This document shows, in pieces, positions 570 to 13,442 of a DNA stretch of 13,442 bases. This DNA is from a virus. The first letter of the stretch is position 1; the number at the start of each line of letters is the position of its first letter. Under the pieces are notes generated by a model. It had not been told where the DNA came from. It made no database searches and was given only the letters and a program-made list of their open reading frames with translations. The stretch lies in the IMG/VR virus record IMGVR_UViG_3300045988_156009, positions 1 through 13,442 of that record, one strand, 5' to 3'. The translations under genes and the position numbers were made by a program.

Positions 570-2000
570 TTATTTCCCGGTTGCAACCCAGTCAATAGGA
601 TAATATTCGCCAGTTGCGCCACTGGAAATTGTAATTTTGCACCCGGTGGTTGTCTTATCAAAAATCTTAATGACGCCAGTTGGTGCAGGGTTACTCCCAT
701 CGGTGGAATACGATGCAATCACTTGCGGAACAGCCGTAAATCCAGCATCTGCATAGTCAATTACTGTTTCCTTTCCAGTTGTAACTGTTACAGTATTTGA
801 GCCACTTACAATTTTCTGTTTTGCGCATAGTCTCTCAAGATCCGTCAAACGTGCGTTGATAGGTTCCTTATCCGTCGGATAATCTGCAGTCCCATTGATA
901 GCAGACCGATTGTTCCAGCTCCAATTATAGGCAGGGTTTATTCTCTGTGTCATCGGTACAGATTCCGCCCAGGCGCCGATGGTTGCCCACAAATTGGCAA
1001 AATTGACGGCTGATGACTTAGACCCGATTTGCTTCAGTGCCGCAGACGCATCGGATGCCGCCTTTATCGCATTAGTGCCTGCTGATTTCGCATTTTTGTC
1101 GGCCTCCTCCGCCTTGGTGTACGCCTCCTGTGCATCCGATTCAACGTTTCCCAACTCCGTTGTAAGTTGTTCGGTCTTATCGTTTACATATGAGACTGTC
1201 GCATATTGAGTGTCAGTCTGCCCCGTAACCATTGCGAACGCGAAAATTCTAATTTTAGCAACCACACCAATTTTTTCTTCGTCACTAAAGATTGTCACAT
1301 ATGCCTTATTATATAACGAAGTAGACGAGGACTTAGTGGGTGCAAGAGTTAGCGAATATGATATATTATCAGTTACGGGTGCCGCTTGTTCGCGGACAGC
1401 GATGGCGAAGTTACAAGGTGCAATATCATTACTGAGTATAGTACCGCTGACGGTATCCGCTCCGAAATATAACTTGTATTCGCCCACGAGCTTAACAGTA
1501 GAGCCGGGTAGCAACGCATTTTCGATCGAATCTAGTCGTGCCTGTATTGTCCCCTTGGTAATATCATACGTTCCGCCTGTCCCAGCAATCGAACGGCTGT
1601 TTGTCTGCTCGTTTGTTTGCACTTGTAGCAGTTTACTGCCTAACGTTTGTGTTGCATTGTAATCACCAATAATGCTCCACAAATTTCCAAAATTTGGCAC
1701 TTCGCCCTTTATGCCGATGCTTTTTTCTGCCGAATTGACACGGGTAGACAACTGCCCAATACTGGTTGTATGTGCGGTAATCTGATTTTGCAAAATCTGG
1801 TCGTTTGTTGTACGTGCCGAGCGTTCACCGGCTATTTTTTCATCAAGTACAGCGTCTTGTTCATCGACATACGTTTTGCTGACAGCGCCGCTATTTTCCA
1901 GCGTGTCCACACGTCCGTCAAGATTTTTGATGCTGTTCAGCACCCAGTCCAAATTTTCCTGATGGAAATTTGTAAAAGGGAACTGTTCCCAAATTGCCAT
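570..2000 (-). CDS. Tail fiber / receptor-binding protein (gp12 position)
   Basis: The probable start is the ATG at 2000 (MAIWEQFPFTNFHQENLDWVL...), with SD AGGAG 8 nt upstream and lying after the upstream gene's stop at 2015. The ORF track extends to 2057. The N-terminal F-x-N-F-H-x-x-N-L-D-W motif is typical of Firmicutes phage fiber N-termini. It has coiled-coil-like segments and two repeated modules, and it is the last gene of the structural operon. Confidence 0.6.
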   Translation of the reverse strand: MAIWEQFPFTNFHQENLDWVLNSIKNLDGRVDTLENSGAVSKTYVDEQDAVLDEKIAGERSARTTNDQILQNQITAHTTSIGQLSTRVNSAEKSIGIKGEVPNFGNLWSIIGDYNATQTLGSKLLQVQTNEQTNSRSIAGTGGTYDITKGTIQARLDSIENALLPGSTVKLVGEYKLYFGADTVSGTILSNDIAPCNFAIAVREQAAPVTDNISYSLTLAPTKSSSTSLYNKAYVTIFSDEEKIGVVAKIRIFAFAMVTGQTDTQYATVSYVNDKTEQLTTELGNVESDAQEAYTKAEEADKNAKSAGTNAIKAASDASAALKQIGSKSSAVNFANLWATIGAWAESVPMTQRINPAYNWSWNNRSAINGTADYPTDKEPINARLTDLERLCAKQKIVSGSNTVTVTTGKETVIDYADAGFTAVPQVIASYSTDGSNPAPTGVIKIFDKTTTGCKITISSGATGEYYPIDWVATGK

Positions 2001-2014
2001 ATTATCATCTCCTG

Positions 2015-2587
2015 TCAGTAAATCCAAATTAAGAAGCGTTTCTGGAAATCCTTGCAAATAATATCGTATATATTGAACATTGCCACATCGCGCTCAGACT
2101 GCAACATCTGTTGCGTTGTCGTTACGCCGATGTTGCCGTGGACTCTGCTATCATGCGTGGTTGTGCTTGTGTTTGTTCCGGCGCTGTCGCTGGTGGTGTT
2201 GCTTGCGCTGCTGGATTCGCTCGCACTGTCATCGGCAGGAGTAGTCAAATTATTGTAGCCGTAAACCTGTGTTTTGCCTGTTCCGTTGCCTGTTGCATTG
2301 CTGGTGGCGTTTGTTTTCGTCGTACCGGTAAACACATCGGTAGACGTTTCCGTTCTGTCATAATTTTCTATTGGATTATATTCAGCTTTAAGCGTTTTCG
2401 CCAAATGTGCCCATGTATATTGAGATATATTACTCCATGTTGCAATCAGCGACTTAAGCAAAGGCGGGTAGGAATAGAGGACAGGCATATCCCCATATTG
2501 TGCCATTAGCGTGTTGATAAAATCGGCTGCCGATAGATTATCAGGCAAGTCAATGCCGTCAAAAATCGACTTGTCAAAGTTGTACAT
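2015..2587 (-). CDS. Putative lower collar / tail tube connector protein (gp11 position)
   Basis: Lies between the portal and the fiber, as phi29 gp11 does. The ORF track gives 2015..2668, but that overlaps the portal by 95 nt. The ATG at 2587 (MYNFDKS...) is preferred and the ATG at 2614 is possible. It contains an AEYNPIENYDR motif and a long Ser/Thr/Asn-rich low-complexity segment. Function is assigned by synteny only. Confidence 0.4.
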   Translation of the reverse strand: MYNFDKSIFDGIDLPDNLSAADFINTLMAQYGDMPVLYSYPPLLKSLIATWSNISQYTWAHLAKTLKAEYNPIENYDRTETSTDVFTGTTKTNATSNATGNGTGKTQVYGYNNLTTPADDSASESSSASNTTSDSAGTNTSTTTHDSRVHGNIGVTTTQQMLQSERDVAMFNIYDIICKDFQKRFLIWIY

Positions 2588-3503
2588 CGTCACCAGCATT
2601 ACGCCCAACGTCATCACCTCCATTAAGCGGGTATCTGCGCTCACAAGTGATTGCAACATTGTATGCACTCTTTACCTCAGCAATACAATTTTGGATAGTA
2701 TCAAACCATTGCGCTACAATGCTGTCCGTCTCCACGTTATTGCGCTCTGCTTCTGCCGTAATCAAACGTTCCTTTTTGTCAACGTTACAAGTCGGAATAC
2801 CAATACGAGTGTCAAATTCCGCCTCAATTTGGCGCATGTTGGAAAGTATACGGTCAGCGATGTAGTTCTGCCCCACGTTTTGGGCGAACGGTTGCCATGA
2901 TGGTTTGCCGTCATCGTCAAAAAGTCCTTTGTCAACCCAGACAGCCAATTCGCCCGAATTAACTCTGTCCATGAGTTCCTTTCCCGTCTGCGCAGCGTTT
3001 TTGGAAGAGACCGCGAACACATAGGAAAGTTTAGAATTCATAATGTTCATGGCCAGCGATTCGACCGATGTTGCAAGTAAATCAGCATAATAATTTACAA
3101 GGTCAAGCGCTCCGTGGTAGTCTCTCTGGAGACGGAAAAGCACGCAGTCCTTGCCAATCTCCAGATGCATAGGCGGCAAAAGAGGGTTTGCAATCTGTAC
3201 GGTCGTAGGCTGATAGAATACATTGTACCCATACAGCGCTCCGGCCTGAGGAATCACGCCAAATTTGCGACTGTTAAAAATTGCCACGCTCCCCCATCCG
3301 TAAAGACATCCCAGGAAATATGTGTCGCTCCAGCCGTCCGGGAAAGTCCATTTGAATTGGCTTGTCAGCTTTTGGAATAAATAACGCTGATAGTAGCCGA
3401 AAATAGCTGTGTTTTTGGTGTGGCATGTGGAAGGGATAATAGAAGATTCATAGGCATTTATCTGATGATAATTAAAAGGCGGTTCACTCATCGTTGTTTT
3501 CAC
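2574..3503 (-). CDS. Portal (upper collar / connector) protein, phi29 gp10-like
   Basis: 309 aa, the same length as phi29 gp10. The segment IGIPTCNVDKKERLITAEAERNNVETDS resembles gp10 [28 protein letters not shown]. The ORF starts with GTG at 3503. The ATG at 3491 (MSEPP...) is an equally plausible start. Confidence 0.85.
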   Translation of the reverse strand: MKTTMSEPPFNYHQINAYESSIIPSTCHTKNTAIFGYYQRYLFQKLTSQFKWTFPDGWSDTYFLGCLYGWGSVAIFNSRKFGVIPQAGALYGYNVFYQPTTVQIANPLLPPMHLEIGKDCVLFRLQRDYHGALDLVNYYADLLATSVESLAMNIMNSKLSYVFAVSSKNAAQTGKELMDRVNSGELAVWVDKGLFDDDGKPSWQPFAQNVGQNYIADRILSNMRQIEAEFDTRIGIPTCNVDKKERLITAEAERNNVETDSIVAQWFDTIQNCIAEVKSAYNVAITCERRYPLNGGDDVGRNAGDDVQL

Positions 3504-5001
3504 TCCCCTCTATAAAAAATCCGTTTGTTAGATATTGCGACAATGCTGCTATTTCGGGCTGAGTTGCCAATACTGTATCAATATCAGGACGCATAACAGT
3601 TGTAAATCCTGATAGGTTAGATAACTTAAGTTTTTTACAACACGGCGTTCCCAGGTCATCGTTATCTGCAGGCACAATGCTTGCGAATTGATAGTATAGC
3701 GTGGGTGCAGCTCTATAATCAGCTAATCCGCCGTTTTGCCCTTTAACGGATAATTCAGCGTTCGCCGCCATTGCTGCTGAACCAATATTGGAAAAATCGC
3801 CTGTTGCAATGCCCTGTACTAAACCTGCTATTGCGCCCTGAGCCGTCGAGGAAGAAAGCAAGGCGGAAGAGGCGCCCAACACAGCTCCTACTTTACCTCC
3901 CGTCATTGCACCCTGCGCAATCGAACCTACTTCATTTTTAACGTCTGACAGAATAGACTTTGCAACGGATTGTTGCGCAAGTTGTATATCAACGCCTATA
4001 TTGCAATCAGCGGAATAAATAAGAGGGGCACCTCTACCTTGGCAAGATACCTGGAGATGGCCAATACCCGAAATGCAATCGATACGAACGAAAACATCAA
4101 GCGTCCTGTTCGCAGTTAGCTTTGATGCGTCAATAGAGAAGACCCCGAACGGCTGAAAAGAAAAGTAGAAATTCGAGTAAGGCCTAAAATCAAGCCAGTT
4201 CCCGCGCCCTATCTGAGGGTGCGAAGGAACTTCCACTGTAAATTGTTTGATGATAACTGCGGCAGACGCAAGTTTCGAGGCGCTCCCTCCTGTAAAATCC
4301 CAACCAGAAACAGAAATTGTGCTCACTTGTCCTGACGTTGGCGGTTTTTCCGGGAACCATTTGCAAGACACGATATATTGAAAAGGGTTGATTATAGCTC
4401 TTGAAAGTTCCTGCGAAATCTCTGCCGCGCTAATCCCCATATACGAATAATCTTTCATCAGCGCGGATCGCAAACCAGCGAATTGTGCGCTTGTCATCAC
4501 ATAATAAGATACGCAACCAACTGTATCAGTTGCCTTATTGATAATTCCCAACACATAATAGCCAGTTGTAAGCGAATCAAAGCTCCAGCCAGTAGTCAGC
4601 GTGTAGCCGTGTGAAATGGTAGATGTTACTGGATAAAGTGTGTCTACAATTGATAAATCGCCAGCGCTTGCGGAACGCAGGATATATTGCGTTGTCTCTT
4701 TGAGTGTATCCCAGTACGTTGCCAGCACATCACACGCCAGTGTGTACAGCACGCGATTTTGGGCAAACGTTATATCAGTAACAAAATAATATCTGTGAAA
4801 ATCTGGTATATACGCATAATTATAAGAAGAGGGGGAAAGAAGCCCCTGCGGAAAAATAAGTGTAATTTGAGGCGCAATAACGCTTGTGCTGTCTTTCAGT
4901 ACGCATTCCGCGAAAAAAGACAACTGCCCTTCCATGTCTTTTTGAGTAGGAATTTTCGTCGAATTTATACGCTTTCGATATGCGTAAAATCTCACTTGCA
5001 T
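3484..5001 (-). CDS. Tail knob / distal tail tube protein, phi29 gp9-like
   Basis: The N-terminal pattern NYAYIPDFHRYYFVTDITF...ACDVLATYW parallels gp9 ...YIMFQNADYGNKWFYAFVTELEF...EIDVLQTWMF. SD GGAGGTG lies 5 nt before the ATG at 5001. A Gly/Ala-rich hydrophobic segment (aa ~345-420) matches the relative position of the gp9 pore-forming loop. Confidence 0.65.
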   Translation of the reverse strand: MQVRFYAYRKRINSTKIPTQKDMEGQLSFFAECVLKDSTSVIAPQITLIFPQGLLSPSSYNYAYIPDFHRYYFVTDITFAQNRVLYTLACDVLATYWDTLKETTQYILRSASAGDLSIVDTLYPVTSTISHGYTLTTGWSFDSLTTGYYVLGIINKATDTVGCVSYYVMTSAQFAGLRSALMKDYSYMGISAAEISQELSRAIINPFQYIVSCKWFPEKPPTSGQVSTISVSGWDFTGGSASKLASAAVIIKQFTVEVPSHPQIGRGNWLDFRPYSNFYFSFQPFGVFSIDASKLTANRTLDVFVRIDCISGIGHLQVSCQGRGAPLIYSADCNIGVDIQLAQQSVAKSILSDVKNEVGSIAQGAMTGGKVGAVLGASSALLSSSTAQGAIAGLVQGIATGDFSNIGSAAMAANAELSVKGQNGGLADYRAAPTLYYQFASIVPADNDDLGTPCCKKLKLSNLSGFTTVMRPDIDTVLATQPEIAALSQYLTNGFFIEGSENNDE

Positions 5002-5005
5002 TTTA

Positions 5006-5764
5006 TCACCTCCAGTTTCTCGCCGCTTTGCAGATAAACCAAATTGGTAAAGGCTTTAGATTCACGTCTTTCAATTCATCATACCAGTATTTTGCCCACT
5101 TGATGCGGTTCGCGCCTGTTAAATCCCAGAGTCGTTTCCCTGCCTGCTCATAGCCAAAAAACCAGCACTGTGTCAGGTCTTCGATGTCATCCGCCGTTTT
5201 GTCAGCATTATAAAAATCCATCTCCAGCGGAAAATTATACGGTGGATTGTACCTGCTCCACTCGGTATCATTTTCCAGCTCCCACATTAGTTTGGCGATT
5301 TGCACTGTGCCATTATACCAACACGGCGTGTCAGCGTCATATGCCCCTACAGCCCCAAATACATCATTAGCCCACGGCGCAATATCCGCCGCTGGTGTCC
5401 ACTGCACCAGCCCGAAGCCGTGTGATTCTGGTATTTGCTGGTAGTCGCTTGCTGGTGTCGGTGCAAACGGCTTCCCCTTTGCCCTCTCCCACAATCCGGG
5501 GTTATATGTTGATTCTGACGCAATATTGCCCAGTATAGCACATATTTGCGGGAGTTTCCAGCCGTTCGCCGTCATCCCGATTGCAAATAATTTCGCGTTT
5601 GTCTCTGATTCTATCGATTTATTTGCATAATCGAAAAAAGCGTTCCCATAAATTTGGAAATACCATTCTTCCGGCAATTTGAAAGGCTTGTATAAATGAG
5701 GATATTTGGAAGATGAAGGGGCTACAATTGGCAATAGGTTAGAACCGTTTACCCTTAAAGCCAT
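5006..5764 (-). CDS. Virion-associated peptidoglycan hydrolase (phage tail lysozyme domain, gp13-like role)
   Basis: The motifs ILGNIASES and GFGLVQWT match the signature of the phage tail lysozyme family (GN..ES ... G.G..QWT). SD GGGAGGGG precedes the ATG at 5764. It is embedded among the structural genes. Confidence 0.65.
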   Translation of the reverse strand: MALRVNGSNLLPIVAPSSSKYPHLYKPFKLPEEWYFQIYGNAFFDYANKSIESETNAKLFAIGMTANGWKLPQICAILGNIASESTYNPGLWERAKGKPFAPTPASDYQQIPESHGFGLVQWTPAADIAPWANDVFGAVGAYDADTPCWYNGTVQIAKLMWELENDTEWSRYNPPYNFPLEMDFYNADKTADDIEDLTQCWFFGYEQAGKRLWDLTGANRIKWAKYWYDELKDVNLKPLPIWFICKAARNWR

Positions 5765-5782
5765 TGTAGCCCCTCCCTCTAA

Positions 5783-6958
5783 TTAGTCCATCAAAATGAC
5801 AATGCCTTTTTCCGTAAAGTCGATTGCATGGCGCTCGTTGTACTTCCAGAAAATATTGTAATACTCACCCTTAGCATTGGGTGGCGTGACTCGCTGTCGC
5901 GTCAGAATCGGGCTGTAACCAAAAGCGTCACGGTCGCAGATTACGCCAATTACATTGTCTTTAAGCACATTATTTGTCGCAGTTACAATCGTGCCATCGT
6001 TTGCAAGATACTGCGGCTTAACCACGTTGATGGTCTGAGGCTGTGTCAAAATCTGCCAATAGTTTACATATTCAACGTCACCTGCCAATTTGAGGAAATT
6101 GTCGTGGTATGTATCCGCGATTGCCATCATGTCAGCCTGATGCATAAATTGCGAATTCAAATAAACTCGCTGGTAACTCTTGGGCGTGTGCTGCAAAAAC
6201 ACACCATTGACGTTGTTGGTCTGGTACGCGCTGGAATATTCTTCCAGCATATCGGACAGCGCCGCAAGACGGGCAAACGACCACTGCATAAACGCCTTGT
6301 AATTGTTACCCTGCATAACGGTCGTAGCTGTAAGCTCCTGCCCCGTTGCGGCATTGTATTCCGTCAGCAGGTGGATAACATCCGCGTTTTGTGCAATCTT
6401 ACCAGCCATAAATCCTGCAATAGTTGCGCGTGCAGTTTCTTCATGCGTTTTTTCGATTTTGTTTGACATATTAGTTAGCACCATCGAAATGAAACTGCCG
6501 AACTCGTCTGCCGACTTGAATGCAGTATCCAACTGTGTTTCAAAAATTGTTTTTTCGTACTCATAAGCTTGCTGCCCGTAGAAATTAAGCTGCAACGCCT
6601 TAGGCTTGCGAACGGCGTACTGGTCAACACTCTCCCCGTCAGTAAGGTCACAATACGGGTTGTCGGTCAGGTCATTAGGGTCATCAATTGTCTTAATTTT
6701 CCTAACCCAGTTACCCCAACGGTCTGTAGGAATCCGCATCCCGGCGAACTTTGCACTGTAAGGGCGGCTAGAAAAAATCGTCCGCGAAAGCAGCTGCGAA
6801 ATCGCGCCCATAACAGGGTCAGCGCCCGTTTTCAGCGCCGTCTGCCCCAGCGTCAAAAGCTGCTTAGTATCAAGCGCCCCCGTTTCCTGTCCCGTCGCAT
6901 CCTTTAGCACTGCTTTGAGTAGCGTGCTAATCTTGTCGATTGTCAGCGTGTTAGCCAT
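5783..6958 (-). CDS. Putative major capsid protein
   Basis: 391 aa from the ATG at 6958 (MANTLTIDK...), with SD GGAGGTG 6 nt upstream. The ORF-track start at 6973 lacks an SD. It lies directly after the scaffold-like gene, as gp8 follows gp7 in phi29, and it is the largest non-tail structural ORF. Assignment is by position and size. Confidence 0.6.
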   Translation of the reverse strand: MANTLTIDKISTLLKAVLKDATGQETGALDTKQLLTLGQTALKTGADPVMGAISQLLSRTIFSSRPYSAKFAGMRIPTDRWGNWVRKIKTIDDPNDLTDNPYCDLTDGESVDQYAVRKPKALQLNFYGQQAYEYEKTIFETQLDTAFKSADEFGSFISMVLTNMSNKIEKTHEETARATIAGFMAGKIAQNADVIHLLTEYNAATGQELTATTVMQGNNYKAFMQWSFARLAALSDMLEEYSSAYQTNNVNGVFLQHTPKSYQRVYLNSQFMHQADMMAIADTYHDNFLKLAGDVEYVNYWQILTQPQTINVVKPQYLANDGTIVTATNNVLKDNVIGVICDRDAFGYSPILTRQRVTPPNAKGEYYNIFWKYNERHAIDFTEKGIVILMD

Positions 6959-7304
6959 TGACAACACCTCCATTACAAGGGCGGATAATTTCCGCCAGTA
7001 CTTCTTCAGCCGTCAGCGGTTTTTCGGTCGGCTGGTGAGCGCTTGCAATGTTACCACGCTGCACCAACCCCGTCAAATCAGCGATTTGCTTATAAATCTT
7101 GTCAAACTGCTCTTTATTGTCATCAGGTGCTGGTGCGGGTGCTGGTGCTGGTGCGGGTGCTGGTGCTGGTGCGGGTGCGGGTGCTGGTGCTGGTGCTGGT
7201 GCGGGTGCGGGTGTAGGTGCAGGTGCATCAATCGTCATCAGCTTACCAATCTGGTCTGCCGTAAAGCCAGCTTTTGCCAGCGTCAAAATGTCAGAAACAT
7301 TCAT
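6951..7304 (-). CDS. Scaffold-like protein with a central (Pro-Ala)n linker
   Basis: 117 aa. SD GGAGGT lies 8 nt before the ATG at 7304, with an ATGA overlap onto the endolysin stop. The layout is an N-terminal ~25-aa helix-rich segment (DILTLAKAGFTADQIGKLM), a ~35-aa AP/TP repeat and a helical C-terminal ~55 aa. The position immediately upstream of the capsid gene suggests a scaffolding role. Confidence 0.5.
   Translation of the reverse strand: MNVSDILTLAKAGFTADQIGKLMTIDAPAPTPAPAPAPAPAPAPAPAPAPAPAPAPAPAPDDNKEQFDKIYKQIADLTGLVQRGNIASAHQPTEKPLTAEEVLAEIIRPCNGGVVNG
7125..7229. repeat. Tandem hexanucleotide repeat (GGTGCK)n encoding (Ala-Pro)n on the minus strand
   Basis: About 17 consecutive GGTGCT/GGTGCG units are visible in the sequence. 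All three plus-strand frames are open here, which produces spurious repeat ORFs. Confidence 0.9.
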
Positions 7305-7789
7305 TGTTTGTTACCTCCATATTTATTTACCAGTGCGACAAGGTCGTTATACAGTGCGGTGCAACTATTTTCCTTTGCCGTCACATCCGCATCATAATCG
7401 AGGCAATTAGCTTTTGCGTGATGCGTCCAGCGCTTGCTTGTAATTTTGTCCATCTGCACACCGCCTGTAGTAGAGTGCATAACCTCTCCGTTGCCGATGT
7501 AGATGCCAACGTGCGCAGCATTCATGCCATCGGTATACCTCTTTGGCTCTTTTCCATCATGTTTGATGGTAAATACCCATTCGCCCACATCAACATTGTC
7601 AAAATTTTCGGATTTATCATGCACAGCGTTGCGCCACATATCATTTGAGCCGCGCCAGTCCTTTTTGATATTGGCATATTTCCTTAAACAGTATTCGACA
7701 AATGCTTGGCAATCAAGTGTGGCATATGGGATGCCGATTATATTGTTACGGTCATCGCTGATTTTTTCTGCCCATTCTGCCGCAATCAA
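7301..7789 (-). CDS. Endolysin, NlpC/P60-family cell-wall endopeptidase
   Basis: Catalytic Cys context LDCQAFVEY and His context AHVGIYIGNGEVMHS are typical of NlpC/P60. The TTG start at 7789 forms a TTGA overlap with the holin stop. 162 aa with no separate wall-binding domain. Confidence 0.85.
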   Translation of the reverse strand: MIAAEWAEKISDDRNNIIGIPYATLDCQAFVEYCLRKYANIKKDWRGSNDMWRNAVHDKSENFDNVDVGEWVFTIKHDGKEPKRYTDGMNAAHVGIYIGNGEVMHSTTGGVQMDKITSKRWTHHAKANCLDYDADVTAKENSCTALYNDLVALVNKYGGNKQ

Positions 7790-7980
7790 TTATCATCACC
7801 GCCCAACTTATCAATTAGCTTCTGCATTACAAGCGTGTTATTGTTAATTGCGTCTTTTAGCTCTTTTGTTTCACTCGCATGTTCTTCGCGCTCCCTATTC
7901 CAAAAGTAAAAAAGCGCGCAGGTGCAGGCAATCGGGAAACCAACTGCGCTAATCAGCTGAGCCAACGTGTTTGCATCCAC
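7786..7980 (-). CDS. Holin, BhlA/UviB-like (one TM helix plus a charged coiled-coil tail)
   Basis: The preferred start is the GTG at 7980, with SD GGAGG 7 nt upstream, giving 64 aa. TM segment LAQLISAVGFPIACTCALFYFW is followed by NREREEHASETKELKD..., resembling BhlA (…LLFYVMKTSKERESKL…). The ORF-track form (7786..8136, 116 aa) adds an N-terminal extension translated through a GC-rich structured region and upstream of the predicted TSS. Confidence 0.6.
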   Translation of the reverse strand: MDANTLAQLISAVGFPIACTCALFYFWNREREEHASETKELKDAINNNTLVMQKLIDKLGGDDN

Positions 7981-8000
7981 ACTACCACCTCCGTTAATGG

Positions 8001-8078
8001 TAGGCGTGGGGGGTCTCGTCGTACACCTACGACACGCGCGCCCTTCCGGGGCTGGTGTTTGCGCCTCCCCCACGCCCA
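8001..8078 (-). ncRNA. GC-rich three-way-junction RNA element (5' leader of the lysis/structural operon; pRNA-like candidate)
   Basis: On the minus-strand RNA, P1 is 12 bp (8078..8067 with 8001..8012, core GGCGUGGGGG/CCCCCACGCC). P2 is 8 bp (8064..8061 plus 8052..8049 with 8043..8036), with an 8-nt bulge AAACACCA and a CGGAA loop. P3 is 6 bp (GUCGUA/UACGAC) with a GGUG loop. The element starts at the predicted TSS of the promoter at 8084..8112. It is markedly more GC-rich than the flanking sequence. Confidence 0.4.
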
Positions 8079-8083
8079 TATTT

Positions 8084-8112
8084 ATAATATCATCTGTTTT
8101 CACAAATGTCAA
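8084..8112 (-). promoter_or_regulatory. Near-consensus sigma-A/sigma-70 promoter for the lysis and structural operon
   Basis: On the minus strand: TTGACA (8112..8107), exactly 17 nt of spacer, then TGaTATTAT (extended -10, hexamer 8089..8084). It lies just downstream of the ATPase stop (8120). The predicted TSS is ~8077..8079. Confidence 0.6.
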
Positions 8113-8119
8113 TACGTTA

Positions 8120-9136
8120 TTATCGGACAATGCCAAAATACTGACAGAATATTATTTCACAACCGGGATTCTCACAATATATATTTCTGTCAATGTATTC
8201 CATTAACAAATTCCGGTAAAGAGTGCGGAAGCGCAAAATGTCATTTTCGCTCGTCGTATATATCGGGCGTGTACCTCTCCCATGCGGGCTGATATAATAC
8301 TCTTTCCGCGATTTGTGTTTATAGATGGTTATTTCCCCCGCTGTAACTACAGGCTTATATTCATTAAGATTCGCGTTTTTCGTTTGCAAAACAGGTTTAT
8401 CAAGATACATATTTTTGAGCGACATATCAATAATACGGTTATCCTTTAGCAAGCGATAAAGCGCAGTTTCTGCCTTTTTCTGACTGATAGGACTGTTCCG
8501 CAAATTTATGATATATAGGCCGCGCTCTTTGTCCTTGTATTCCTGCACACCTTTTTCCGCCATTTCGTAGGCTGTTCCTATGATTCCCAATGATTGGAAA
8601 ATAGGGTTCGCAATTGTGTTGGTGTTTGATAGCAATAGACACTGCACAGGGTTTCGGCCTTGTAACTCCCTGTTACGGTTGATTGTTTCGTAAGCGTTAA
8701 AAAATGCATCACCCTCATTTTTGATTCTTCGTTCATGGGATTCTGGTATAAATTCGTCAAATATAATTGTGTCTATGTTTTCAGCGCTGAAACCGCGAAC
8801 GTTGGAAATGCCGGAAAGTGCCATCATATATCCTTGTGGCGTTTCCGCGCCGTCGATGTAAATGCCAACTGCTTCCTTGCTTAGCTTTACCGTTTCAACC
8901 TCTTTCCCCATATATTTACAGACCGGAACGAGAGGACACATATCGCCCATACTCACTTCAATCTGTGTTTTCGTTCGTCGCATGTATATAAAATTTTCTT
9001 CTTTTTCAATCATATCTTTAAGCGCTCCGAACGTTTTGCCAGTTCCGCGCGCCCCTGTAATAATTGTAAACGGGTATCCTTGTGAGCGAATATATGGTAT
9101 ATCAATATATCCGTTTTCCATGCATAGATTTTTCAC
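8120..9136 (-). CDS. DNA packaging (encapsidation) ATPase, phi29 gp16-like
   Basis: 338 aa against 332 aa for gp16. Walker A is TGARGTGKT (gp16 IGARGIGKS). Other shared motifs are FIYMRRTK (gp16 FIYVRRYK), Walker B IIFDEFI (gp16 IVFDEFI), RNRE and LLSN. The GTG start at 9136 has SD AGGAGG 7 nt upstream. Confidence 0.9.
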   Translation of the reverse strand: MKNLCMENGYIDIPYIRSQGYPFTIITGARGTGKTFGALKDMIEKEENFIYMRRTKTQIEVSMGDMCPLVPVCKYMGKEVETVKLSKEAVGIYIDGAETPQGYMMALSGISNVRGFSAENIDTIIFDEFIPESHERRIKNEGDAFFNAYETINRNRELQGRNPVQCLLLSNTNTIANPIFQSLGIIGTAYEMAEKGVQEYKDKERGLYIINLRNSPISQKKAETALYRLLKDNRIIDMSLKNMYLDKPVLQTKNANLNEYKPVVTAGEITIYKHKSRKEYYISPHGRGTRPIYTTSENDILRFRTLYRNLLMEYIDRNIYCENPGCEIIFCQYFGIVR

Positions 9137-9149
9137 AATGCATCCTCCT

Positions 9150-9180
9150 ACAAGAAAAGGGATGCTTCTGCATCCCTTTA
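9150..9180 (-). terminator. Intrinsic terminator after the SSB gene, abutting the ATPase RBS
   Basis: A 10-bp stem (9156..9165 with 9170..9179, AAAGGGATGC/GCATCCCTTT) with a 4-nt loop. On the minus-strand RNA it is followed by UUUUCUUG. The U-tract ends 1-2 nt before the ATPase SD. Confidence 0.6.
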
Positions 9181-9184
9181 TCCG

Positions 9185-9526
9185 TCACTGGAAAATCAAC
9201 TCGCAAGAGTTATATGGACGCCCCGACTTACTCTTGATGGACACAACCTTAAGCGAAAAACCCACATCGTCCATATCACACGCCTTGATGTAATTGACGA
9301 TATCCCCAAACCGTGCCGCAAATGCCGCCGAATTGGTGATATATGCAGTGCCGTCAGCGTCAATGATGCCAGTGCGCTGTTTAATTTCCGCGCCATCCGC
9401 AGTGTACTCGTTGAGCGCCCATGCTTTGACAGTCAGCTTCTTGCCAACGGCCTTGGTCATCGGACGCGCCTCGCTGGAAAGCGTCAACGCATACAGTTCG
9501 CTTGGGGTGATTCGTTCGTTATTCAT
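9185..9526 (-). CDS. Single-stranded DNA-binding protein, phi29 gp5-like
   Basis: 113 aa against 124 aa for gp5. TGIIDADGTAYITNSAAFAARFGDIV...FSLKVVSIKSKSGRPYNSCEL parallels gp5 TTIFAADGSLYSAISKTVAEAASDLI...FKVKVVQGTSSKGNVFFSLQL. SD AAGGAGG lies 6 nt before the ATG. The gene has its own consensus promoter and terminator. Confidence 0.55.
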   Translation of the reverse strand: MNNERITPSELYALTLSSEARPMTKAVGKKLTVKAWALNEYTADGAEIKQRTGIIDADGTAYITNSAAFAARFGDIVNYIKACDMDDVGFSLKVVSIKSKSGRPYNSCELIFQ

Positions 9527-9547
9527 GATTCGTCCTCCTTTATTGGC

Positions 9548-11623
9548 TTACCGCCTATATAGATTATAGCAGATTGCGCGGTCGGTGTCAATGGTTATTA
9601 ACGTGTTACTAACATCTGCAAGCAATGAGTGATACTTTTCTCCGATGGTCACCGTGTAGGTTGACGGGCACAAGCATACGTTACGAGTGACGTGCAAATT
9701 ATGTCCTTCTATTGTTGTCAAATAATCAGTTGTATCATTATAGATACTTTCAAGCCCTCCGGATTCGCGGAAAATATAACCAGGCTTAAATGCTTTCAGT
9801 CCTCCCGACTTTGCAAGTTCATCGTCTCCGCCCATTTCCACAATTTCGCCTTTTGCGTTCTTCGCGCTCCTTTTCCTCACTCCCGCAATTGTGATGCTTA
9901 TTTTTCCGTTTTCGTCCTCGCTTGCATACTTCTTTGCCCCCCATGTCAAGAAATGGTAATACTGCCCCTCATACTCTGCAACGCCCATATAATGCCGTTT
10001 GCCTTTAGGGTCATCAGCATATGCTCCGCTTGCTGTGCTTGCCAACTTGCAACGCTCGTTATATTCTGAAAAGTCTATACCTTCATCTGCTATATATTTA
10101 CAACTATCTGTGTCAGCATACACAAATTTACTACCAGCAATTTTTATCATTTCCTCTAATTCTCTTCGCGCGTATGCTGTCACCCACACACCCCATTGAT
10201 ATGGCAATAGCGCCTTTTTGATGTTCTTCGCCACATCAACCTCTACTTGCTTATAATCGCCAGCGTCAAATATTATATCGTCTTTCCCCGGATCCGTTGC
10301 GCACATCCCGTATAATGAATTTAATAAATTTTTACTTTTTATATAGTCATATTCTTCGCCCTCAACGCCTTTTAATCGCGTTTTTGCCGTGTAATATTTC
10401 CGTACCAATTCTCTATATTCCTTCGGCAAATAGTCCTTGTCTGCCGTATAAATATCGTAAAAATCAATAGCCCCTGTGTACTCGTCCAATATAATCTCTA
10501 TGTCAACGTCGGTAACCTCTATAACAAGCATATCTGCGCTTAATACTCTCCCGTTATCCTCTACAGCATTTTCCAAATATGTGCATTTTGATACCGGTAT
10601 ATATGGCGCCCCCCACTGTTTATTGCGCAACTCCGCGCCTGATATAGCCATCGTACACAAGATTGCAAGCCCTACACGCATAGCCCTTTTAATCGTTGCA
10701 TATCCATCGGGTACTTTGCGAAAAGGCTTCATTGGATATTTTTGGTTTAACATCACATCCGGGTAACTGCTGGAACGGTCGAATGATTGCACATTTCCCA
10801 GTATTTTTCCAACAAAAAATCTGTTGGCGTGTGTATTACCGCCGCGAAAAGCAAGGCGCAACTTGTGATATACGTCTACAGTTGGCTTGAGATAGCCAAT
10901 TGCAACGTTGGCTAACGCTTTGCGCGTGTCCCTGCGCACATACCCTGTTGCCGTTCGCGGCATGGTGTACACCGTGTCTCCGTCTTTTTCCAGCTTTTTA
11001 ACAGTAGCCTCTAATAGGCCAATAACATCATTTTGGCAATATCCTATTTCGGCTGCTGTCATCACAGTCCACGGATAGCGCTTTTTGGTATAATCATAAT
11101 CAGCACCGCTTTTCTTCTCGTGCTCCACGCCCATGTCACGCAGGAACATATTAAGCGCTTTATTTGTCCAAATGTAGCTACAACGGTATTCAATACACCC
11201 ACATGTCGCTGTTAAAATCTTACGCGCCTTAAGACAAAACACGTCTTGCATTTCGCAAAGCCCTGCCAAAAACTGAAATTCATACGACAGGTTATGTACC
11301 ATGCACACGATTTTTACAAGCCCCAACCTCTTGTTGATTGCCTCTTGTAATCGTATCCATTCCTCCCATGTGCGGCCGTATGTGACAAAATACTCACCAT
11401 CAACATACAGCCCACATTGCCAGATGTACATAACGGCGTTATCATCGCTTAGCCTTGTTGTTTCAATGTCAAATGCCAATATACCATTAGCATACAACTT
11501 CTTGCAACGCACGCTGTCAGGCGTTAATGCCATCAAATTATCAATACCGTCATATACACTACGCAAGTTACCATCTCCTAATAGTGTCGGCAGGGACAAA
11601 AGTCCCCGACCGTAAACGGTCAC
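9548..11623 (-). CDS. Protein-primed family-B DNA polymerase (phi29 gp2-like)
   Basis: Motifs seen: ExoI FDIETT, ExoII HNLSYEFQF, ExoIII YCQNDV and YxGG-like FRGG. Also motif A FDRSSSYPD, motif B KSKNLLNSLYG, motif C YADTDS and KxY (AKKYA). The ORF-track start is the GTG at 11623, which overlaps the upstream gene by 56 nt. Alternative starts are the TTG at 11566 (SD AGGAG 8 nt upstream, just after the upstream stop) or the ATG at 11533. Confidence 0.95.
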   Translation of the reverse strand: MTVYGRGLLSLPTLLGDGNLRSVYDGIDNLMALTPDSVRCKKLYANGILAFDIETTRLSDDNAVMYIWQCGLYVDGEYFVTYGRTWEEWIRLQEAINKRLGLVKIVCMVHNLSYEFQFLAGLCEMQDVFCLKARKILTATCGCIEYRCSYIWTNKALNMFLRDMGVEHEKKSGADYDYTKKRYPWTVMTAAEIGYCQNDVIGLLEATVKKLEKDGDTVYTMPRTATGYVRRDTRKALANVAIGYLKPTVDVYHKLRLAFRGGNTHANRFFVGKILGNVQSFDRSSSYPDVMLNQKYPMKPFRKVPDGYATIKRAMRVGLAILCTMAISGAELRNKQWGAPYIPVSKCTYLENAVEDNGRVLSADMLVIEVTDVDIEIILDEYTGAIDFYDIYTADKDYLPKEYRELVRKYYTAKTRLKGVEGEEYDYIKSKNLLNSLYGMCATDPGKDDIIFDAGDYKQVEVDVAKNIKKALLPYQWGVWVTAYARRELEEMIKIAGSKFVYADTDSCKYIADEGIDFSEYNERCKLASTASGAYADDPKGKRHYMGVAEYEGQYYHFLTWGAKKYASEDENGKISITIAGVRKRSAKNAKGEIVEMGGDDELAKSGGLKAFKPGYIFRESGGLESIYNDTTDYLTTIEGHNLHVTRNVCLCPSTYTVTIGEKYHSLLADVSNTLITIDTDRAICYNLYRR
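9563..9591 (-). promoter_or_regulatory. Perfect-consensus sigma-A/sigma-70 promoter driving the SSB gene
   Basis: On the minus strand: TTGACA (9591..9586), a 17-nt spacer, then TGcTATAAT (hexamer 9568..9563). It is embedded in the last codons of the polymerase gene. The predicted TSS is ~9556, about 30 nt upstream of the SSB ATG. Confidence 0.65.
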
Positions 11624-12233
11624 GCGCCTTCTTCCCTGCCTCCTCCGATTGCTGTTCCCAATAATCCCAGCGCTTTAACAGTTGTGCAATATCCTGCTTT
11701 CTAAATCCCTTCGCTTTCTCCGTTTCACCGTAAAGATTAGCTATATAATCCTGCAACACCTTATAATACCATGCTTCTTTGTTCGCCGCCTTGTAAATAC
11801 CAAAAAAACGCCTGAACTTATAAAAATCGCTGTATGAAAAACCGCTATCATCAAACCAGCCTTTTTTCATCAACCCCTCATACTCTTCATTATATTCCTC
11901 TTCCTGCCTCTGTAAAACCTCCCTTGCACTTCCCGTTTCGGTTATTGTCTTCCACATCTCCCGTATCTGCTTCACACCTTCCTGCACGCTCCAAATTGTT
12001 GACGGCTTATCCCAATATCCGCGCTCATACTTCTCGACGGCTACATGCTCCGCCCCTCCCTTGATGGCCGCTTTATAACGTTTTTCCATCAAGTCAATTA
12101 GCGCCTTTATTTCTTTTTTGACATCCGCCAGAGTGATTCCGGCGGATGCCTTGCCTTTCTCATATACGGATGCCGGTAATGGTCTGCTTGCTACACTGGT
12201 TATCTGTGCAAACTGTTTATTCCATCTTGCCAT
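11568..12233 (-). CDS. Candidate terminal protein (gp3 position)
   Basis: A 221-aa charged, aromatic-rich protein immediately upstream of, and translationally adjacent to, the protein-primed polymerase. This matches the TP-Pol synteny of phi29, Cp-1 and PRD1. The ATG at 12233 has SD GAGGA. No sequence motif shared with known TPs was recognised, so the assignment is positional. Confidence 0.45.
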   Translation of the reverse strand: MARWNKQFAQITSVASRPLPASVYEKGKASAGITLADVKKEIKALIDLMEKRYKAAIKGGAEHVAVEKYERGYWDKPSTIWSVQEGVKQIREMWKTITETGSAREVLQRQEEEYNEEYEGLMKKGWFDDSGFSYSDFYKFRRFFGIYKAANKEAWYYKVLQDYIANLYGETEKAKGFRKQDIAQLLKRWDYWEQQSEEAGKKARDRLRSGTFVPADTIRRW

Positions 12234-12450
12234 GCTTGTCCTCTCCCTTCAAGCGGTTAGTACGCTTAAGCTCCGCATAACAAGCGCCCACACACCGGCG
12301 AACTGTCTCGGAAAACGTCCATCCTGCCACGCTCATAATATCCCGTACCTGTTTCGTCTCTTCCTCCGTTACCGTGATACTTGTGATTTTTACGTTTCGC
12401 ATAACTTCCCTTTCTCCCCGTATGGCCGATAGGACAGCGACTTTCTTCAT
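12217..12450 (-). CDS. Ribbon-helix-helix (CopG/Arc/MetJ-like) DNA-binding protein, putative transcriptional regulator
   Basis: The RHH pattern is beta strand KITSITVTEEE, helix 1 TKQVRDIMSVAG, turn WTFSE and helix 2 TVRRCVGACYAELKR. The ATG at 12450 forms an ATGA overlap with the upstream stop. The internal ATG at 12402 (MRNVKITS..., 61 aa) would give a more typical RHH length. Confidence 0.5.
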   Translation of the reverse strand: MKKVAVLSAIRGEREVMRNVKITSITVTEEETKQVRDIMSVAGWTFSETVRRCVGACYAELKRTNRLKGEDKHGKME

Positions 12451-12650
12451 TCACCCCACGCAAACAGCTTTATTTGCCCTATGCAAGTTCCAACCCACCG
12501 CATTCCGCCAGCCCGCCGATAACGGTAAATCTTAGCAATATCTGCCCCGCCCTTTGTAGCGTAATACTTGGCAATAGCCACAGCGTCTTCGCGGTTTGAT
12601 GCATATGCCGTGGATTCAATGTTTTTGTAATAAATATCAATCCTGTACAT
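12447..12650 (-). CDS. Hypothetical early protein (67 aa)
   Basis: The ATG at 12650 (MYRIDIYYKN...) has SD AGGAGG upstream. The ORF-track start at 12704 lacks an SD and would overlap the upstream gene by 68 nt. No recognisable motif. Confidence 0.5.
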   Translation of the reverse strand: MYRIDIYYKNIESTAYASNREDAVAIAKYYATKGGADIAKIYRYRRAGGMRWVGTCIGQIKLFAWGE

Positions 12651-12864
12651 TATCTTTCCTCCTGTATACTCGCACATATTCAATACTTTGAAAAGGTTCA
12701 GCAATGCTCCTGCTCATAAACTCCGCTTTGGTAATTCGATTCGCCACATTTCCATCATAAACCATCCAATAATAGCTTTTTGCTGTGAATGTGTACCCTC
12801 TATCGTTTAATTCCTCGAATTGTTTCGCCGTCAATCGCGCCTGCTTCATTGCATCAGCCCCCAT
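12637..12864 (-). CDS. Hypothetical early protein (70-75 aa)
   Basis: The ORF has an ATG at 12864 and an alternative ATG at 12849 (MKQARLTAKQFEEL...). It is co-oriented and tightly packed with the neighbouring early genes. No recognisable motif. Confidence 0.5.
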   Translation of the reverse strand: MGADAMKQARLTAKQFEELNDRGYTFTAKSYYWMVYDGNVANRITKAEFMSRSIAEPFQSIEYVRVYRRKDNVQD

Positions 12865-12900
12865 CCTACTAACAAAATAGCTAACACCACCACAATCAAT

Positions 12901-13089
12901 TCACACATTCTGTTCACGCTCCTTCCTACACTTTTCGATAATTTCACGAGTGACAACCCGTGCAATGGCAAGTAGACATTCCCGCTCGTCAGACGTATAA
13001 CCCTTATAACTACGGTTAGCAAGTTCGCAAATGTCAGTTAGCGTTTTCGCCCTGAGATACTGCACTGCCAGAAATCGGAAATCAGTCAT
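12901..13089 (-). CDS. Hypothetical first early protein (62 aa)
   Basis: The ATG at 13089 has SD GGAGGG 9 nt upstream. It is the first substantial ORF downstream of the right ITR promoter. No recognisable motif. Confidence 0.55.
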   Translation of the reverse strand: MTDFRFLAVQYLRAKTLTDICELANRSYKGYTSDERECLLAIARVVTREIIEKCRKEREQNV

Positions 13090-13136
13090 TTCAATACACC
13101 CTCCATTCGTTCAGCCCTGAGTCGCTCCACAAACAT
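13086..13136 (-). CDS. Possible 16-aa leader ORF coupled to the first early gene
   Basis: The ATG at 13136 lies 5 nt after the ITR-borne SD AAAGGAA, the same SD and spacing used by the left-end gene. It encodes MFVERLRAERMEGVLK. Its TGA overlaps the ATG of the 62-aa gene (ATGA). It is very short, so translation is unproven. Confidence 0.25.
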   Translation of the reverse strand: MFVERLRAERMEGVLK

Positions 13137-13141
13137 TACGA

Positions 13142-13415
13142 TTCCTTTCTGGTTTGTTGAGGTTTTCCTTCCCCTTTACACATATATAACACGATTCGTT
13201 ATTAATGTACATACCCTGTTAGTTGAGTTGTGAGGACAATTTTCTCTACTGACGGGAAAGGTATAGAATGGTTGCGCGATACAATGTGCAATTGTAGACG
13301 TGACAAGCGGTGCTTGTGGCAATAGATGGATACCAGAAACGACATGACAAGGAGCAGTTGTTTGTCGAATCTGGTCATGGGGAACTGGGTGACAATTTTC
13401 TGTTGTTACCTTCCC
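13142..13415. repeat. Right inverted terminal repeat (ITR)
   Basis: Reverse complement of 28..303. Positions 13198..13415 are identical to 28..245, and 13142..13197 are a diverged copy. Confidence 0.9.
13183..13211 (-). promoter_or_regulatory. Putative inward-facing early promoter in the inner part of the right ITR
   Basis: On the minus strand: TGTACA (13211..13206), a 17-nt spacer, then TGtTATATA (hexamer 13188..13183). It is the mirror copy of the left element, with a slightly different -10. Confidence 0.4.
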
Positions 13416-13442
13416 AGATCGGAAGAGCACACGTCTGAACTC
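13416..13442. other. Illumina TruSeq-type adapter remnant (technical sequence, not biological)
   Basis: AGATCGGAAGAGCACACGTCTGAACTC is the canonical adapter read-through sequence and the reverse complement of 1..27. Confidence 0.95.

Follow-up and report, generated by a model that had tools for sequence, protein, structure and literature searches.

What does the short segment between the packaging ATPase gene and the holin gene of a phi29-like phage encode? On the minus strand of the stretch analyzed here (IMG/VR record IMGVR_UViG_3300045988_156009, positions 1 to 13,442, 13,442 nt in all; hereafter, the window), an original prediction had placed a promoter and, just after it, a three-way-junction RNA resembling the packaging RNA (pRNA) of phage phi29. 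The locus thus raises the question of whether such an RNA exists as a conserved structure, and whether it serves the packaging motor or the late mRNA in which it lies. We find that the late transcript opens with a genuine, conserved structured RNA of ~78 nt, a three-way junction with a pseudoknot. As to its function, the best single reading, to which we assign a probability of roughly 0.4, is a miniature pRNA-like RNA that oligomerizes; readings in which the RNA is a cis-acting leader, among them the 5' stabilizer and the regulatory leader that the original prediction gave as alternatives, are together about as likely. The features of the locus, in window coordinates and in the order of transcription, are as follows.

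8120 to 9136, minus strand: gp16-type packaging ATPase (PHROG terminase match, 2.8e-40), given for context only.
8084 to 8112, minus strand: late promoter (-35, spacer, TG, -10; 11/12 with TG).
8001 to 8078, minus strand: the entire three-way-junction RNA (P1-P2-P3), ~78 nt (fold, covariation and covariance model R2, described below).
8067 to 8078, minus strand: 5' strand of P1, U-G-GGCGUGGGGG, pairing with 8001-8012 (double compensatory changes at 8 of 12 pairs among close relatives).
8036 to 8064, minus strand: P2 arm, comprising P2a, the 5' bulge, P2b and an apical pentaloop (fold, family conservation).
8054 to 8057, minus strand: CACC in the bulge, the 5' half of a kissing pair (complements 8024-8027; covaries).
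8018 to 8033, minus strand: P3 hairpin GUCGUA/UACGAC, with loop GGUG (8027-8024) as the 3' half of the kissing pair (fold, covariation).
8013 to 8017, minus strand: J3/1 (GAGAC), the longest junction strand (J3/1 exceeds J2/3 in 68 of 70 members).
8001 to 8012, minus strand: 3' strand of P1, CCCCCACGCC-U-A (fold and compensatory changes).
7982 to 8003, minus strand: hairpin CUACCA/UGGUAG displaying the Shine-Dalgarno (SD) sequence and overlapping the last 2-3 nt of P1 (minimum-free-energy fold).
7786 to 7980, minus strand: holin, the first late gene, 64 aa (PHROG holin match; GFPI motif kept in relatives).

The consensus promoter that had been proposed after the ATPase stop codon (TAA, 8122-8120, upstream of the promoter) has every element where it was placed. 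Read from the sequence, these are a -35 TTGACA (8112-8107), a 17-nt spacer, a TG (8092-8091) and a -10 TATTAT (8089-8084), a combination that ranks among the four best promoter-like sites of the genome. The predicted start lies near G8077, at the base of P1. Among 70 distinct members of the RNA family described below, 55 have a late promoter scoring at least 10/12. The distance from the -10 to the first base of P1 is mostly 4-7 nt across the 70, so that the closing helix is predicted to begin at or within 1-2 bases of the transcript 5' end in nearly all of them.

The predicted fold likewise holds in every helix, bulge and loop, and refolding returns it exactly (-48.3 kcal/mol, z = -2.71, with 3 of 200 shuffles equally good). 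P1 consists of 10 bp (8076-8067/8012-8003) extended by G8077-U8002 and U8078-A8001. The P2 arm is built from P2a (GCGC 8064-8061/GCGC 8039-8036), a one-sided 5' bulge AAACACCA (8060-8053), P2b (GCCC 8052-8049/GGGC 8043-8040) and the apical loop CGGAA (8048-8044). The complementarity claimed between the bulge CACC and the P3 loop GGUG is present and covaries among relatives, and the element is more GC-rich than its surroundings, as had been noted (0.67-0.71 vs 0.38-0.45 in the flanks). A DNA cruciform or replication origin is ruled out, as G-U pairs occur in the sense orientation only (for example, the U-G pair closing P3 in 20 of 70 members), and no tRNA or tmRNA was found.

A coding explanation is also ruled out. 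Translation of a 116-aa ORF (7786-8136) that spans the element had been named as evidence that would count against the RNA. The PHROG holin match begins inside this ORF, at residue 56-57, the upstream extension is not conserved, and in 35 of the 51 relatives in which the frame could be placed it is closed within or after the RNA. The holin start is accordingly corrected to GTG at 7980-7978.

We searched 104 sources with a structure descriptor, using reversed-sequence decoys as a control. The motif was found in 91 of the 104, and the decoys gave 0 matches at the same score. A first covariance model (R1), drawn from two close clades, proved too sequence-specific and missed distant members; it was replaced by the descriptor and then by model R2, which yields 78 matches in 100 sources, one per genome. 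The sole R2 match in the window is the element itself (8006-8073, minus strand; 47.7 bits, E = 1.3e-10). R2 has no matches in phi29, asccphi28, CI644P6, CI55P2, susfortuna or AD70P3. The last of these, an Amedibacillus phage, fits weakly, and to the descriptor only, through a divergent candidate copy at OP172639 positions 6304-6365, minus strand. A relaxed descriptor permitting any apical loop is non-specific in AT-rich cultured Clostridium phages, where decoys score as well as real matches, so that absence of the RNA there is uninformative. Altogether, about 95-100 related phage contigs share the three-way-junction RNA. The window element is the founding example of a family with a single copy in each genome, spread over a large clade of phi29-like gut phages of ~13 kb that encode a protein-primed polymerase and a gp16-type ATPase. 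More than 540 relatives of the ATPase are available.

No Rfam family covers the element at E values up to 10, either in the whole window or in an isolated 161-nt segment (7960-8120); a match to sRNA-Xcc1 is on the wrong strand and is attributed to chance. Nor was a similar RNA found in Rfam or in the literature searched. The family is widespread, well supported and previously uncatalogued.

The pairing pattern is borne out by a sequence-only MAFFT alignment of 30 diverse members, in which 83% of cells pair, vs 55% in shuffles (0 of 500 reached this value). The covariation score is 0.70, vs 0.19 for shuffles and 0.13-0.20 for slid partners. Compensatory changes were sought in all three helices and occur in P1, P2 and P3. 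The bulge/loop pairing, whose complementarity was not a search requirement, covaries as strongly as the helices: CACC/GGUG becomes CGAC/GUCG, AGUCA/UGACU, GCACA/UGUGC and others, for a total of 31 distinct complementary pairs among 70 distinct sequences. The complement averages 4.26 nt, vs a null of 2.32 (maximum 2.64, 1000 permutations). In the sequence-only alignment, the kiss helix is 86.5% paired, with 14-18 double changes at each of three of its five pairs.

Conservation of unpaired bases is confined to the CNGAA apical loop, A residues flanking the bulge and an A-rich J3/1; the junction strands are short and, save for a few A residues, poorly conserved. All 70 distinct members have an apical loop of the form CNGAA, which in 64 of them reads CGGAA, while inspection by eye of loci missed by the descriptor revealed UGGAA (L035) and CGAAA (L049). 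So strongly conserved a loop points to a conserved partner acting in trans. P1 ranges from 6 to 14 bp across the family and has no conserved bulge. In two members only, L094 and L096, does the closing helix reach 17 bp, with single-base bulges.

Each arm of this layout has its counterpart in the prohead-binding core of phi29 pRNA, as seen when the phi29 RNA is fetched and folded for comparison. Both are three-way junctions closed by a helix of the 5' and 3' ends. In both, the first arm carries a one-sided 5' bulge (7-9 nt) that pairs through the 4-5 nt at its 3' end, and the arm ends in a 4-bp apical helix with a small loop; the second arm is a hairpin of 5-6 bp whose ~5-nt loop pairs with the bulge. 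The bulge/loop complementarity persists in both while its sequence changes from phage to phage. Transcription is predicted to start at the closing helix from a strong promoter, much as pRNA lies just after the -10 of promoter A1. The host phage is itself phi29-like in its protein-primed PolB, gp16-type ATPase and phi29-type portal.

The differences are also substantial. The family RNA measures 65-80 nt, whereas phi29-type pRNAs measure 120-174 nt. In place of the ~25-bp A helix of pRNA with its CCA bulge, the family has a P1 of 6-14 bp and no CCA-type bulge, and the equivalent of the 9-bp C helix is 4-5 bp. Among the junction strands, J3/1 (3-6 nt) is the longest, rather than the UUU between the arms, and the apical loop is an invariant CNGAA pentaloop rather than the 6-nt E loop. 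The RNA forms the 5' leader of the late operon, whereas pRNA is a terminated gene at a genome end. Finally, the window element has no RF00044 score: the covariance scan suggested with the original prediction gave no match in the window or in 7960-8120 at E values up to 10, and the phi29 control scored 145 bits. The claim of pRNA likeness survives for arm order, 5' bulge, hairpin partner and covariation, and finds no support in RF00044 similarity, P1 length or ATPase adjacency.

Proximity to the ATPase gene had been offered as support, and it proves incidental. The ATPase is of phi29 size (338 aa), with phi29 gp16 as its nearest solved structure (7jqq, E = 1e-13). Rearranged relatives, however, keep the RNA with the holin and not with the ATPase: in MT835998 and the L109-L115 clade, it heads the holin/late operon kilobases from the ATPase, on the other strand. 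In all three genome architectures (colinear, convergent and divergent) the RNA is co-oriented with the first late gene and directly 5' of it. The genome yielded no further RNA candidate, in agreement with the original prediction. The inverted terminal repeat, an alternative site for a pRNA, folds better than shuffles; it carries ORFs and lacks an outward promoter/terminator unit.

pRNA has been described as unique to Bacillus phi29-like phages (PMC5066667, PMC11476376). The statement that all characterized gp16-type motors need such an RNA was too strong, given the counter-case of Lactococcus phage asccphi28, for which no evidence of a pRNA was reported and whose ATPase, according to the authors, assembles into rings by itself (PMC7823558). 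A covarying bulge/loop complement, on the other hand, is a criterion for authenticating new pRNAs (PMC12670572, which quotes the pRNA criteria of Bailey 1990 and Jin 2025).

The sequence downstream of the element bears on every functional reading. In the window, the tail is CCAUUAACGG, with no U-run and no terminator after the element, consistent with the earlier remark that no U-tract follows; the element as an intrinsic terminator is ruled out on the same ground. U-run and terminator alike are missing after P1 from the window and its 97% relative, and roughly half of the relatives, like the window, lack a terminator there. A U-run, defined as 5 or more U in 8 nt, comes after P1 in 31 of 70 relatives (~44%). 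In L094 and L096, the 17-bp closing helix is followed by U6 and then by a weak second promoter-like site (9/12). In the L029 group, a separate terminator hairpin stands directly after the junction and before the holin, leaving no room for another promoter. These two kinds of members, and those with U-runs, look like discrete RNA units.

Across relatives, the SD lies 2-30 nt after P1 and the start codon a median of ~28 nt after it. In the window, the holin SD (GGAGG, 7992-7988) sits in the loop of the next hairpin (8003-7982), as had been predicted. P1 is kept in 63 of 70 minimum-free-energy folds of the leader plus 50 nt; across the 70 members the junction has a median of -33 kcal/mol, vs -9 for any tail structure, and no mutually exclusive partner for the P1 3' strand was found in these folds. 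In about one third of relatives, the window not among them, the CNGAA loop complements a segment 5-12 nt after P1, and a few of these cases covary. Such a complement just 5' of the SD occurs in 23 of 70 members, vs 0-4 in four controls lying outside the holin coding sequence. A further control, taken from within the holin gene, gives 15 of 70, from conserved GFP codons, so that such matches can arise without RNA pairing. From the sequences, a second pseudoknot is possible in this third of the relatives.

Under the miniature-pRNA reading, we infer that the bulge and loop would pair between molecules, that the RNA would be released and that it would act in packaging. The last 4-5 nt of the P2 bulge, on its 3' side, would pair with the P3 loop of a neighboring molecule, "hand in hand", so that several copies would form a closed ring on the portal vertex. 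The prohead would be contacted by the CNGAA loop capping P2, a counterpart of the E loop of pRNA, and the short P1 would point toward the ATPase. Free RNA could be produced by termination at the U-run after P1 in ~44% of relatives or at a separate terminator in some others. In the window, the very stable fold (about -43 kcal/mol) could outlast the rest of the late mRNA as a 5' remnant that resists decay.

According to the junction rules of Lescoute and Westhof, a J3/1 longer than J2/3 tends to swing P3 away from P2. On this basis the family leans toward pairing between molecules, since nearly all members (68/70) have that arrangement. P2a (4-5 bp) and P3 (5 bp) are nevertheless of similar height, and on a rough geometric estimate the bulge/loop pairing could also form within one molecule. 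Arm lengths do not separate the two, because the sum P2a+J2/3+P3 (10-12) and the difference P3-P2a (0 to +2) cluster equally tightly. Several observations weigh against a miniature pRNA. The element shows no RF00044 similarity, and a P1 of 6-14 bp is far below the A helix that docks the ATPase. Its constant place, just ahead of the first late gene, is where a cis-acting leader is classically found. As no terminator is present in the window or in roughly half of the relatives, release would need processing or decay, and the loop-tail complement in about one third of relatives links the fold to the mRNA that follows. Nor is the portal N-terminus basic; it lacks the RKR present in that of phi29 gp10. 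The gp16-type ATPase of asccphi28, moreover, forms rings with no known pRNA (PMC7823558).

Among the single alternatives, the least improbable, though we consider it doubtful, is a cis-acting transcription leader working by attenuation or processive antitermination, with the bulge/loop pairing formed inside one molecule. The CNGAA loop would then engage RNA polymerase or an early phage or host protein, and this contact would decide between stopping at the U-run or terminator and reading through into the holin-to-tail operon of ~7.5 kb. The near-consensus sigma-70-type promoter, which would otherwise be active as soon as infection begins, always has the RNA at the head of its transcript. The RNA remains with the late operon whatever the genome architecture, and its conserved apical loop suggests a conserved binding partner. 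The U-runs and the L029-group terminator fit such a switch, and a structured RNA behind a strong promoter at the head of a lysis/morphogenesis operon recalls HK022 put and the lambda pR'-6S RNA-tR' region with Q, as does the terminator-like signal before the holin in many relatives. Yet put consists of two stem-loops and tR' is a plain terminator, whereas the RNA here is a junction with a pseudoknot, and, unlike put and Q-type systems, the window has no terminator and no antiterminator gene was identified. Since the window and its 97% relative have neither U-run nor terminator after P1, termination control cannot be the shared function of the family. No alternative pairing competes with P1, and L094 and L096 seem to restart from their second, weak promoter after the terminator.

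Ranked after it, and also unlikely in our estimation, is a 5'-terminal stabilizer and translation leader of the late mRNA. A blunt-ended, tertiary-locked fold would block 5'-dependent attack (RppH, RNase J1 and RNase Y in Firmicutes), and the ribosome-binding site of the first gene would be held open or, in some relatives, partly masked by the loop-tail pairing. In its favor are a 5' end predicted to be fully base-paired in nearly all members, the stability of the fold, an SD soon after P1 that the window shows in a hairpin loop, and the excess of loop-tail complements over the four controls. The ermC and aprE leaders likewise carry a helix at the extreme 5' terminus of a highly expressed transcript, and cryIIIA STAB-SD is comparable. 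Known Gram-positive 5' stabilizers are, however, simple hairpins or SD-like sites, and the invariant pentaloop, junction geometry and covarying kiss of the present RNA are left unexplained. An efficient terminator immediately after a stabilizer, as in the L029 group and L094, makes little sense. The loop-tail complement is absent from the window and most members, and the holin-gene control weakens it further.

A riboswitch-like sensor of a ligand or protein, or a small self-cleaving ribozyme trimming the leader, is very improbable. The RNA does have the appropriate position, within the 5' UTR, immediately ahead of the first late gene and in the same orientation, and the downstream "platforms" differ among relatives (U-run, terminator or SD hairpin). 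Purine riboswitches and hammerheads are, like it, three-way junctions with arm-to-arm tertiary pairing. Unpaired segments of neighboring arms pair in purine riboswitch L2-L3, in the hammerhead stem I bulge and stem II loop and in the SRP Alu loops, and the possible pairing of apical loop and 3' flank in one third of relatives resembles that of flavivirus xrRNA. The conserved cores of these RNA families are missing here, though, and the two arms are connected by no more than 0-2 nt. There is no Rfam match at E values up to 10, the isolated 161 nt included, no ribozyme core sequence among those checked by eye and no mutually exclusive partner for P1, and the junction strands are short and poorly conserved.

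The packaging and leader functions could also be combined, an arrangement we regard as rather improbable, less so than a riboswitch or ribozyme. The first ~78 nt of each late transcript would serve both as protective cap and leader of the late mRNA and as the precursor of a minimal self-assembling packaging RNA, with the CNGAA loop again contacting the prohead. In some lineages, pairing of this loop with the 3' flank might keep mRNA-attached copies off proheads until termination or decay. Such dual use, if true, would extend RNA-dependent packaging well beyond the Bacillus phages, with an RNA half the size of phi29 pRNA.

The family brings two hallmark features of pRNA, the junction and the covarying interlocking loops, into a 65-80-nt format, and about 100 gut-phage genomes that carry it are now in hand, their phages being some of the smallest tailed phages. 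It bears directly on whether non-Bacillus phages with gp16-type motors use RNA. If the RNA is cis-acting, it would be a pseudoknotted leader of a new class, controlling or protecting an entire lysis and structural operon. If assembly is between molecules, as in the miniature-pRNA reading, it would be the smallest natural self-assembling RNA ring unit, a finding of interest both for how packaging motors evolved and for RNA nanotechnology.

The window spans the complete linear genome (13,442 nt) of a phi29-like podovirus of very small size and has inverted terminal repeats (ITRs) of about 276–300 bp. Illumina TruSeq adapter remnants (GAGTTCAGACGTGTGCTCTTCCGATCT and its reverse complement) lie at both window ends, 1-27 and 13416-13442, and mark the physical termini of the linear genome, whose true extent is about 28-13415 with adapter excluded. 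The repeats (1-303 and 13142-13442) match over 257 nt at 98%, have additional imperfect arms, and fold better than shuffled sequences (z = -2.4 and -3.6). Nearly every gene is on the minus strand, in the order small early genes, PolB, SSB-like, gp16-type ATPase, holin, lysin, major head, collar and portal, tail.

13-270, plus: inward-facing ORF in ITR
13176-13430, minus: inward-facing ORF in ITR
9548-11623, minus: protein-primed PolB
8120-9136, minus: gp16-type ATPase

Among solved structures the ATPase best matches phi29 gp16 (7jqq, E = 1e-13), and the portal most closely resembles phi29-type connectors. No close relative was found among deposited phages; those that come nearest are Amedibacillus phage AD70P3 (Guelinviridae) and contigs from human faeces that lack annotation. 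The minus-strand late operon and the plus-strand ORFs from the left ITR meet at a perfect hairpin (539-565, 12 pairs) that resembles a bidirectional terminator, with T-runs on either side. Directly after the major head protein gene, an inverted repeat (5711-5780, 18-nt arms, 89%) forms a strong hairpin ahead of the next gene; weak Rfam matches to RsaOG and mir-3051 arise from this repeat and are spurious.

The promoter and GC-rich element of about 78 nt described in the original prediction are both present. Positions 8112-8084 carry the promoter, TTGACA-17-TGaTATTAT (11/12 with TG), and the fold was reproduced at 8078-8001 (-48.3 kcal/mol, z = -2.7), with closing helix P1 and arms P2 and P3.

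P1, minus: 10+2 bp
P2, minus: 4+4 bp, interrupted by bulge AAACACCA, CGGAA cap
P3, minus: 6 bp, loop GGUG

As predicted, bulge CACC is complementary to loop GGUG, the next hairpin presents the holin SD, and no U-run follows the element; in the window the RNA is followed by this SD hairpin only. Sequence comparison shows that the 116-aa ORF is no gene: holin homology within it begins only at residue 56-57, the true holin start being GTG 7980, and of the 51 relatives in which the upstream frame could be placed, 35 have it closed. Two further near-consensus minus-strand promoters lie at 9563-9591, ahead of the SSB/ATPase block (12/12 with TG), and at 11889-11916, within the early region (11/12); the three strong promoters seem equally constitutive.

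Protein-guided searches of IMG/VR yielded 15, then 80, then 7 related loci, and seven further contigs came from GenBank; the ATPase relatives detected number more than 540 in total. The element aligns base for base in a 97%-identical relative and a 69% clade. Compensatory changes, sought in related contigs as had been proposed, here include double changes in 15/30 pairs, with 97.8% of cells paired. Compared with the closest relative, the window shows similar divergence in ATPase gene (88% identity) and RNA (86%), and the helix changes are compensatory without exception. A structure descriptor that fixed the helices and required CNGAA as the apical loop, leaving the bulge/loop relation free, matched 91 of 104 sources, 90 of them on the sense strand just after a promoter, and matched no reversed-sequence decoy at equal score; most misses are variants or truncated contigs. 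With 30 diverse members aligned on sequence alone in MAFFT, 83% of cells are paired against 55% after shuffling (0/500), and the covariation score is 0.70 against 0.19 for shuffled alignments and 0.13-0.20 for slid partners. R2, our covariance model built from this alignment, gives 78 matches over 673 kb, each in a different genome, and scores the window at E = 1.3e-10. A more distant relative (MT837693, 4080-4220) has a longer, different structured region, a multibranch fold of about 110 nt plus a strong hairpin, in the same place, downstream of the ATPase and between a promoter and the holin. Neither descriptor nor R2 matches it.

Anatomy of the family (70 distinct sequences).
J1/2 junction strand: 0-2 nt
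P2a: 4-5 bp
One-sided 5' bulge: 7-8 nt
P2b: 4 bp
Apical pentaloop: CGGAA in 64/70, CNGAA in 70/70
J2/3 junction strand: 0-2 nt, rarely 3
P3: mostly 5 bp
P3 loop: 4-7 nt
J3/1 junction strand: 3-6 nt, exceeding J2/3 in 68/70

Each helix position shows four to six pair types, and the apical-loop variants UGGAA and CGAAA occur in loci outside the descriptor matches. The bulge/loop pairing is genuine: its longest Watson-Crick run averages 4.26 nt, against 2.32 with loops reassigned between loci (at most 2.64 in 1000 trials), with 31 distinct complementary pairs. Across fixed alignment columns the bulge/loop helix is 86.5% paired, each of three positions showing 14-18 double changes; C-G and A-U predominate at the two pairs adjoining P2b.

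That the RNA borders the ATPase gene, a point emphasised in the original prediction, proves incidental. In MT835998 the RNA (1045-1125, consensus promoter upstream, holin downstream) is separated from an opposite-strand ATPase (9375-10439), and in another clade (L109-L115) the ATPase is the final gene of one strand, and about 4 kb off the RNA opens a holin operon that runs divergently. Genomes of the Amedibacillus type have a first late gene other than a holin, and there too it is preceded by the RNA. Promoter strength is high (10/12 or better in 55/70), and the spacing implies that transcription should start at the P1 base; the median distance from P1 to the start codon is about 28 nt. A U-run (at least 5 in 8) follows the RNA in 31/70. 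One group (L029) has a separate terminator hairpin after it, and in L094/L096 a 17-bp closing helix is followed by U6, beyond which lies a second, weak promoter-like site.

The apical loop may form a second pseudoknot with the tail. About a third of distinct members have, 5-12 nt after P1 and just upstream of the SD, a UUCCGG/UCCGG segment complementary to the loop and its closing base, C-CGGAA-G (for example L004, about 4139-4144; L058; L023, 1133-1137), and a few cases covary (A-CGGA/UCCGU in MT835998, U-CGGAA/UUCCGA in L088, CCUGA/UCAGG in L071). Complements of at least 5 nt occur in 23/70, against 0-4 in the four controls placed elsewhere than in the holin coding sequence. A holin-internal control also matches in 15/70, via conserved GFP codons; we regard the pairing as suggestive only. 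The window lacks this complement.

We fetched and folded phi29 pRNA and matched it to its Rfam family, RF00044. The two RNAs share kind and order of elements: in phi29, an A helix, a C helix, a one-sided 5' CE bulge GAUUAAACC with pairing 3' AACC, a 4-bp E helix with a small loop, and a D hairpin whose 5-nt loop UGGUU pairs. They nevertheless differ substantially: the new RNA is half as large, its short closing helix lacks the CCA bulge, its C-helix equivalent has 4-5 rather than 9 bp, and its long junction strand is located differently. Given these differences and no RF00044 score, it cannot be assigned to the pRNA family; no other Rfam 15 family matches. pRNA has been described as unique to Bacillus phi29-like phages (PMC5066667, PMC11476376), and the pRNAs added by a 2025 Infernal survey have Bacillus or Cytobacillus phages as their named sources (PMC12670572). 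Lactococcus phage asccphi28 (NC_010363), reported without evidence for pRNA (PMC7823558), has in each of its 577-bp ITRs (23-401 / 18362-18740) an annotated promoter-to-terminator unit of about 300 nt without CDS, a candidate non-coding RNA. Clostridium phage CI55P2 (OP172760) has a weak candidate three-way junction (4730-4799, plus; ACCA/UGGU bulge-loop complement, UAAC apical loop) in its 150-nt PolB-ATPase gap, scoring no better than decoys.

Explanations of what the RNA does divide about equally between a trans-acting, pRNA-like class and a cis-acting leader class. Within the latter, a transcription leader and a 5' stabiliser or translation leader, which in its plain stabiliser form explains too little, are nearly level, each with about half the weight of the leading single mechanism. 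The RNA's constant association with the 5' end of the late operon favours a cis role, although promoter sharing would also maintain it; the short P1, the lack of a release signal in the window, and the possible loop-tail pairing also point this way, as does the literature, which does not bear out the original claim that all characterised gp16-type motors need an RNA. A classical riboswitch is disfavoured; extended-leader folds revealed no competing downstream partner of P1, which was retained in 63/70. The single most likely specific mechanism, at roughly 40%, is a mini-pRNA, a pRNA-like RNA that would act in trans. The arm-for-arm match with phi29 pRNA and the covarying interlocking loops argue for this reading, as do the invariant apical loop, which implies a conserved partner, the expected transcription start at P1, lineages in which the RNA looks like a terminated unit, and the phi29-sized ATPase. 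The RNA would work like the oligomerisation core of pRNA, or at least resembles it.
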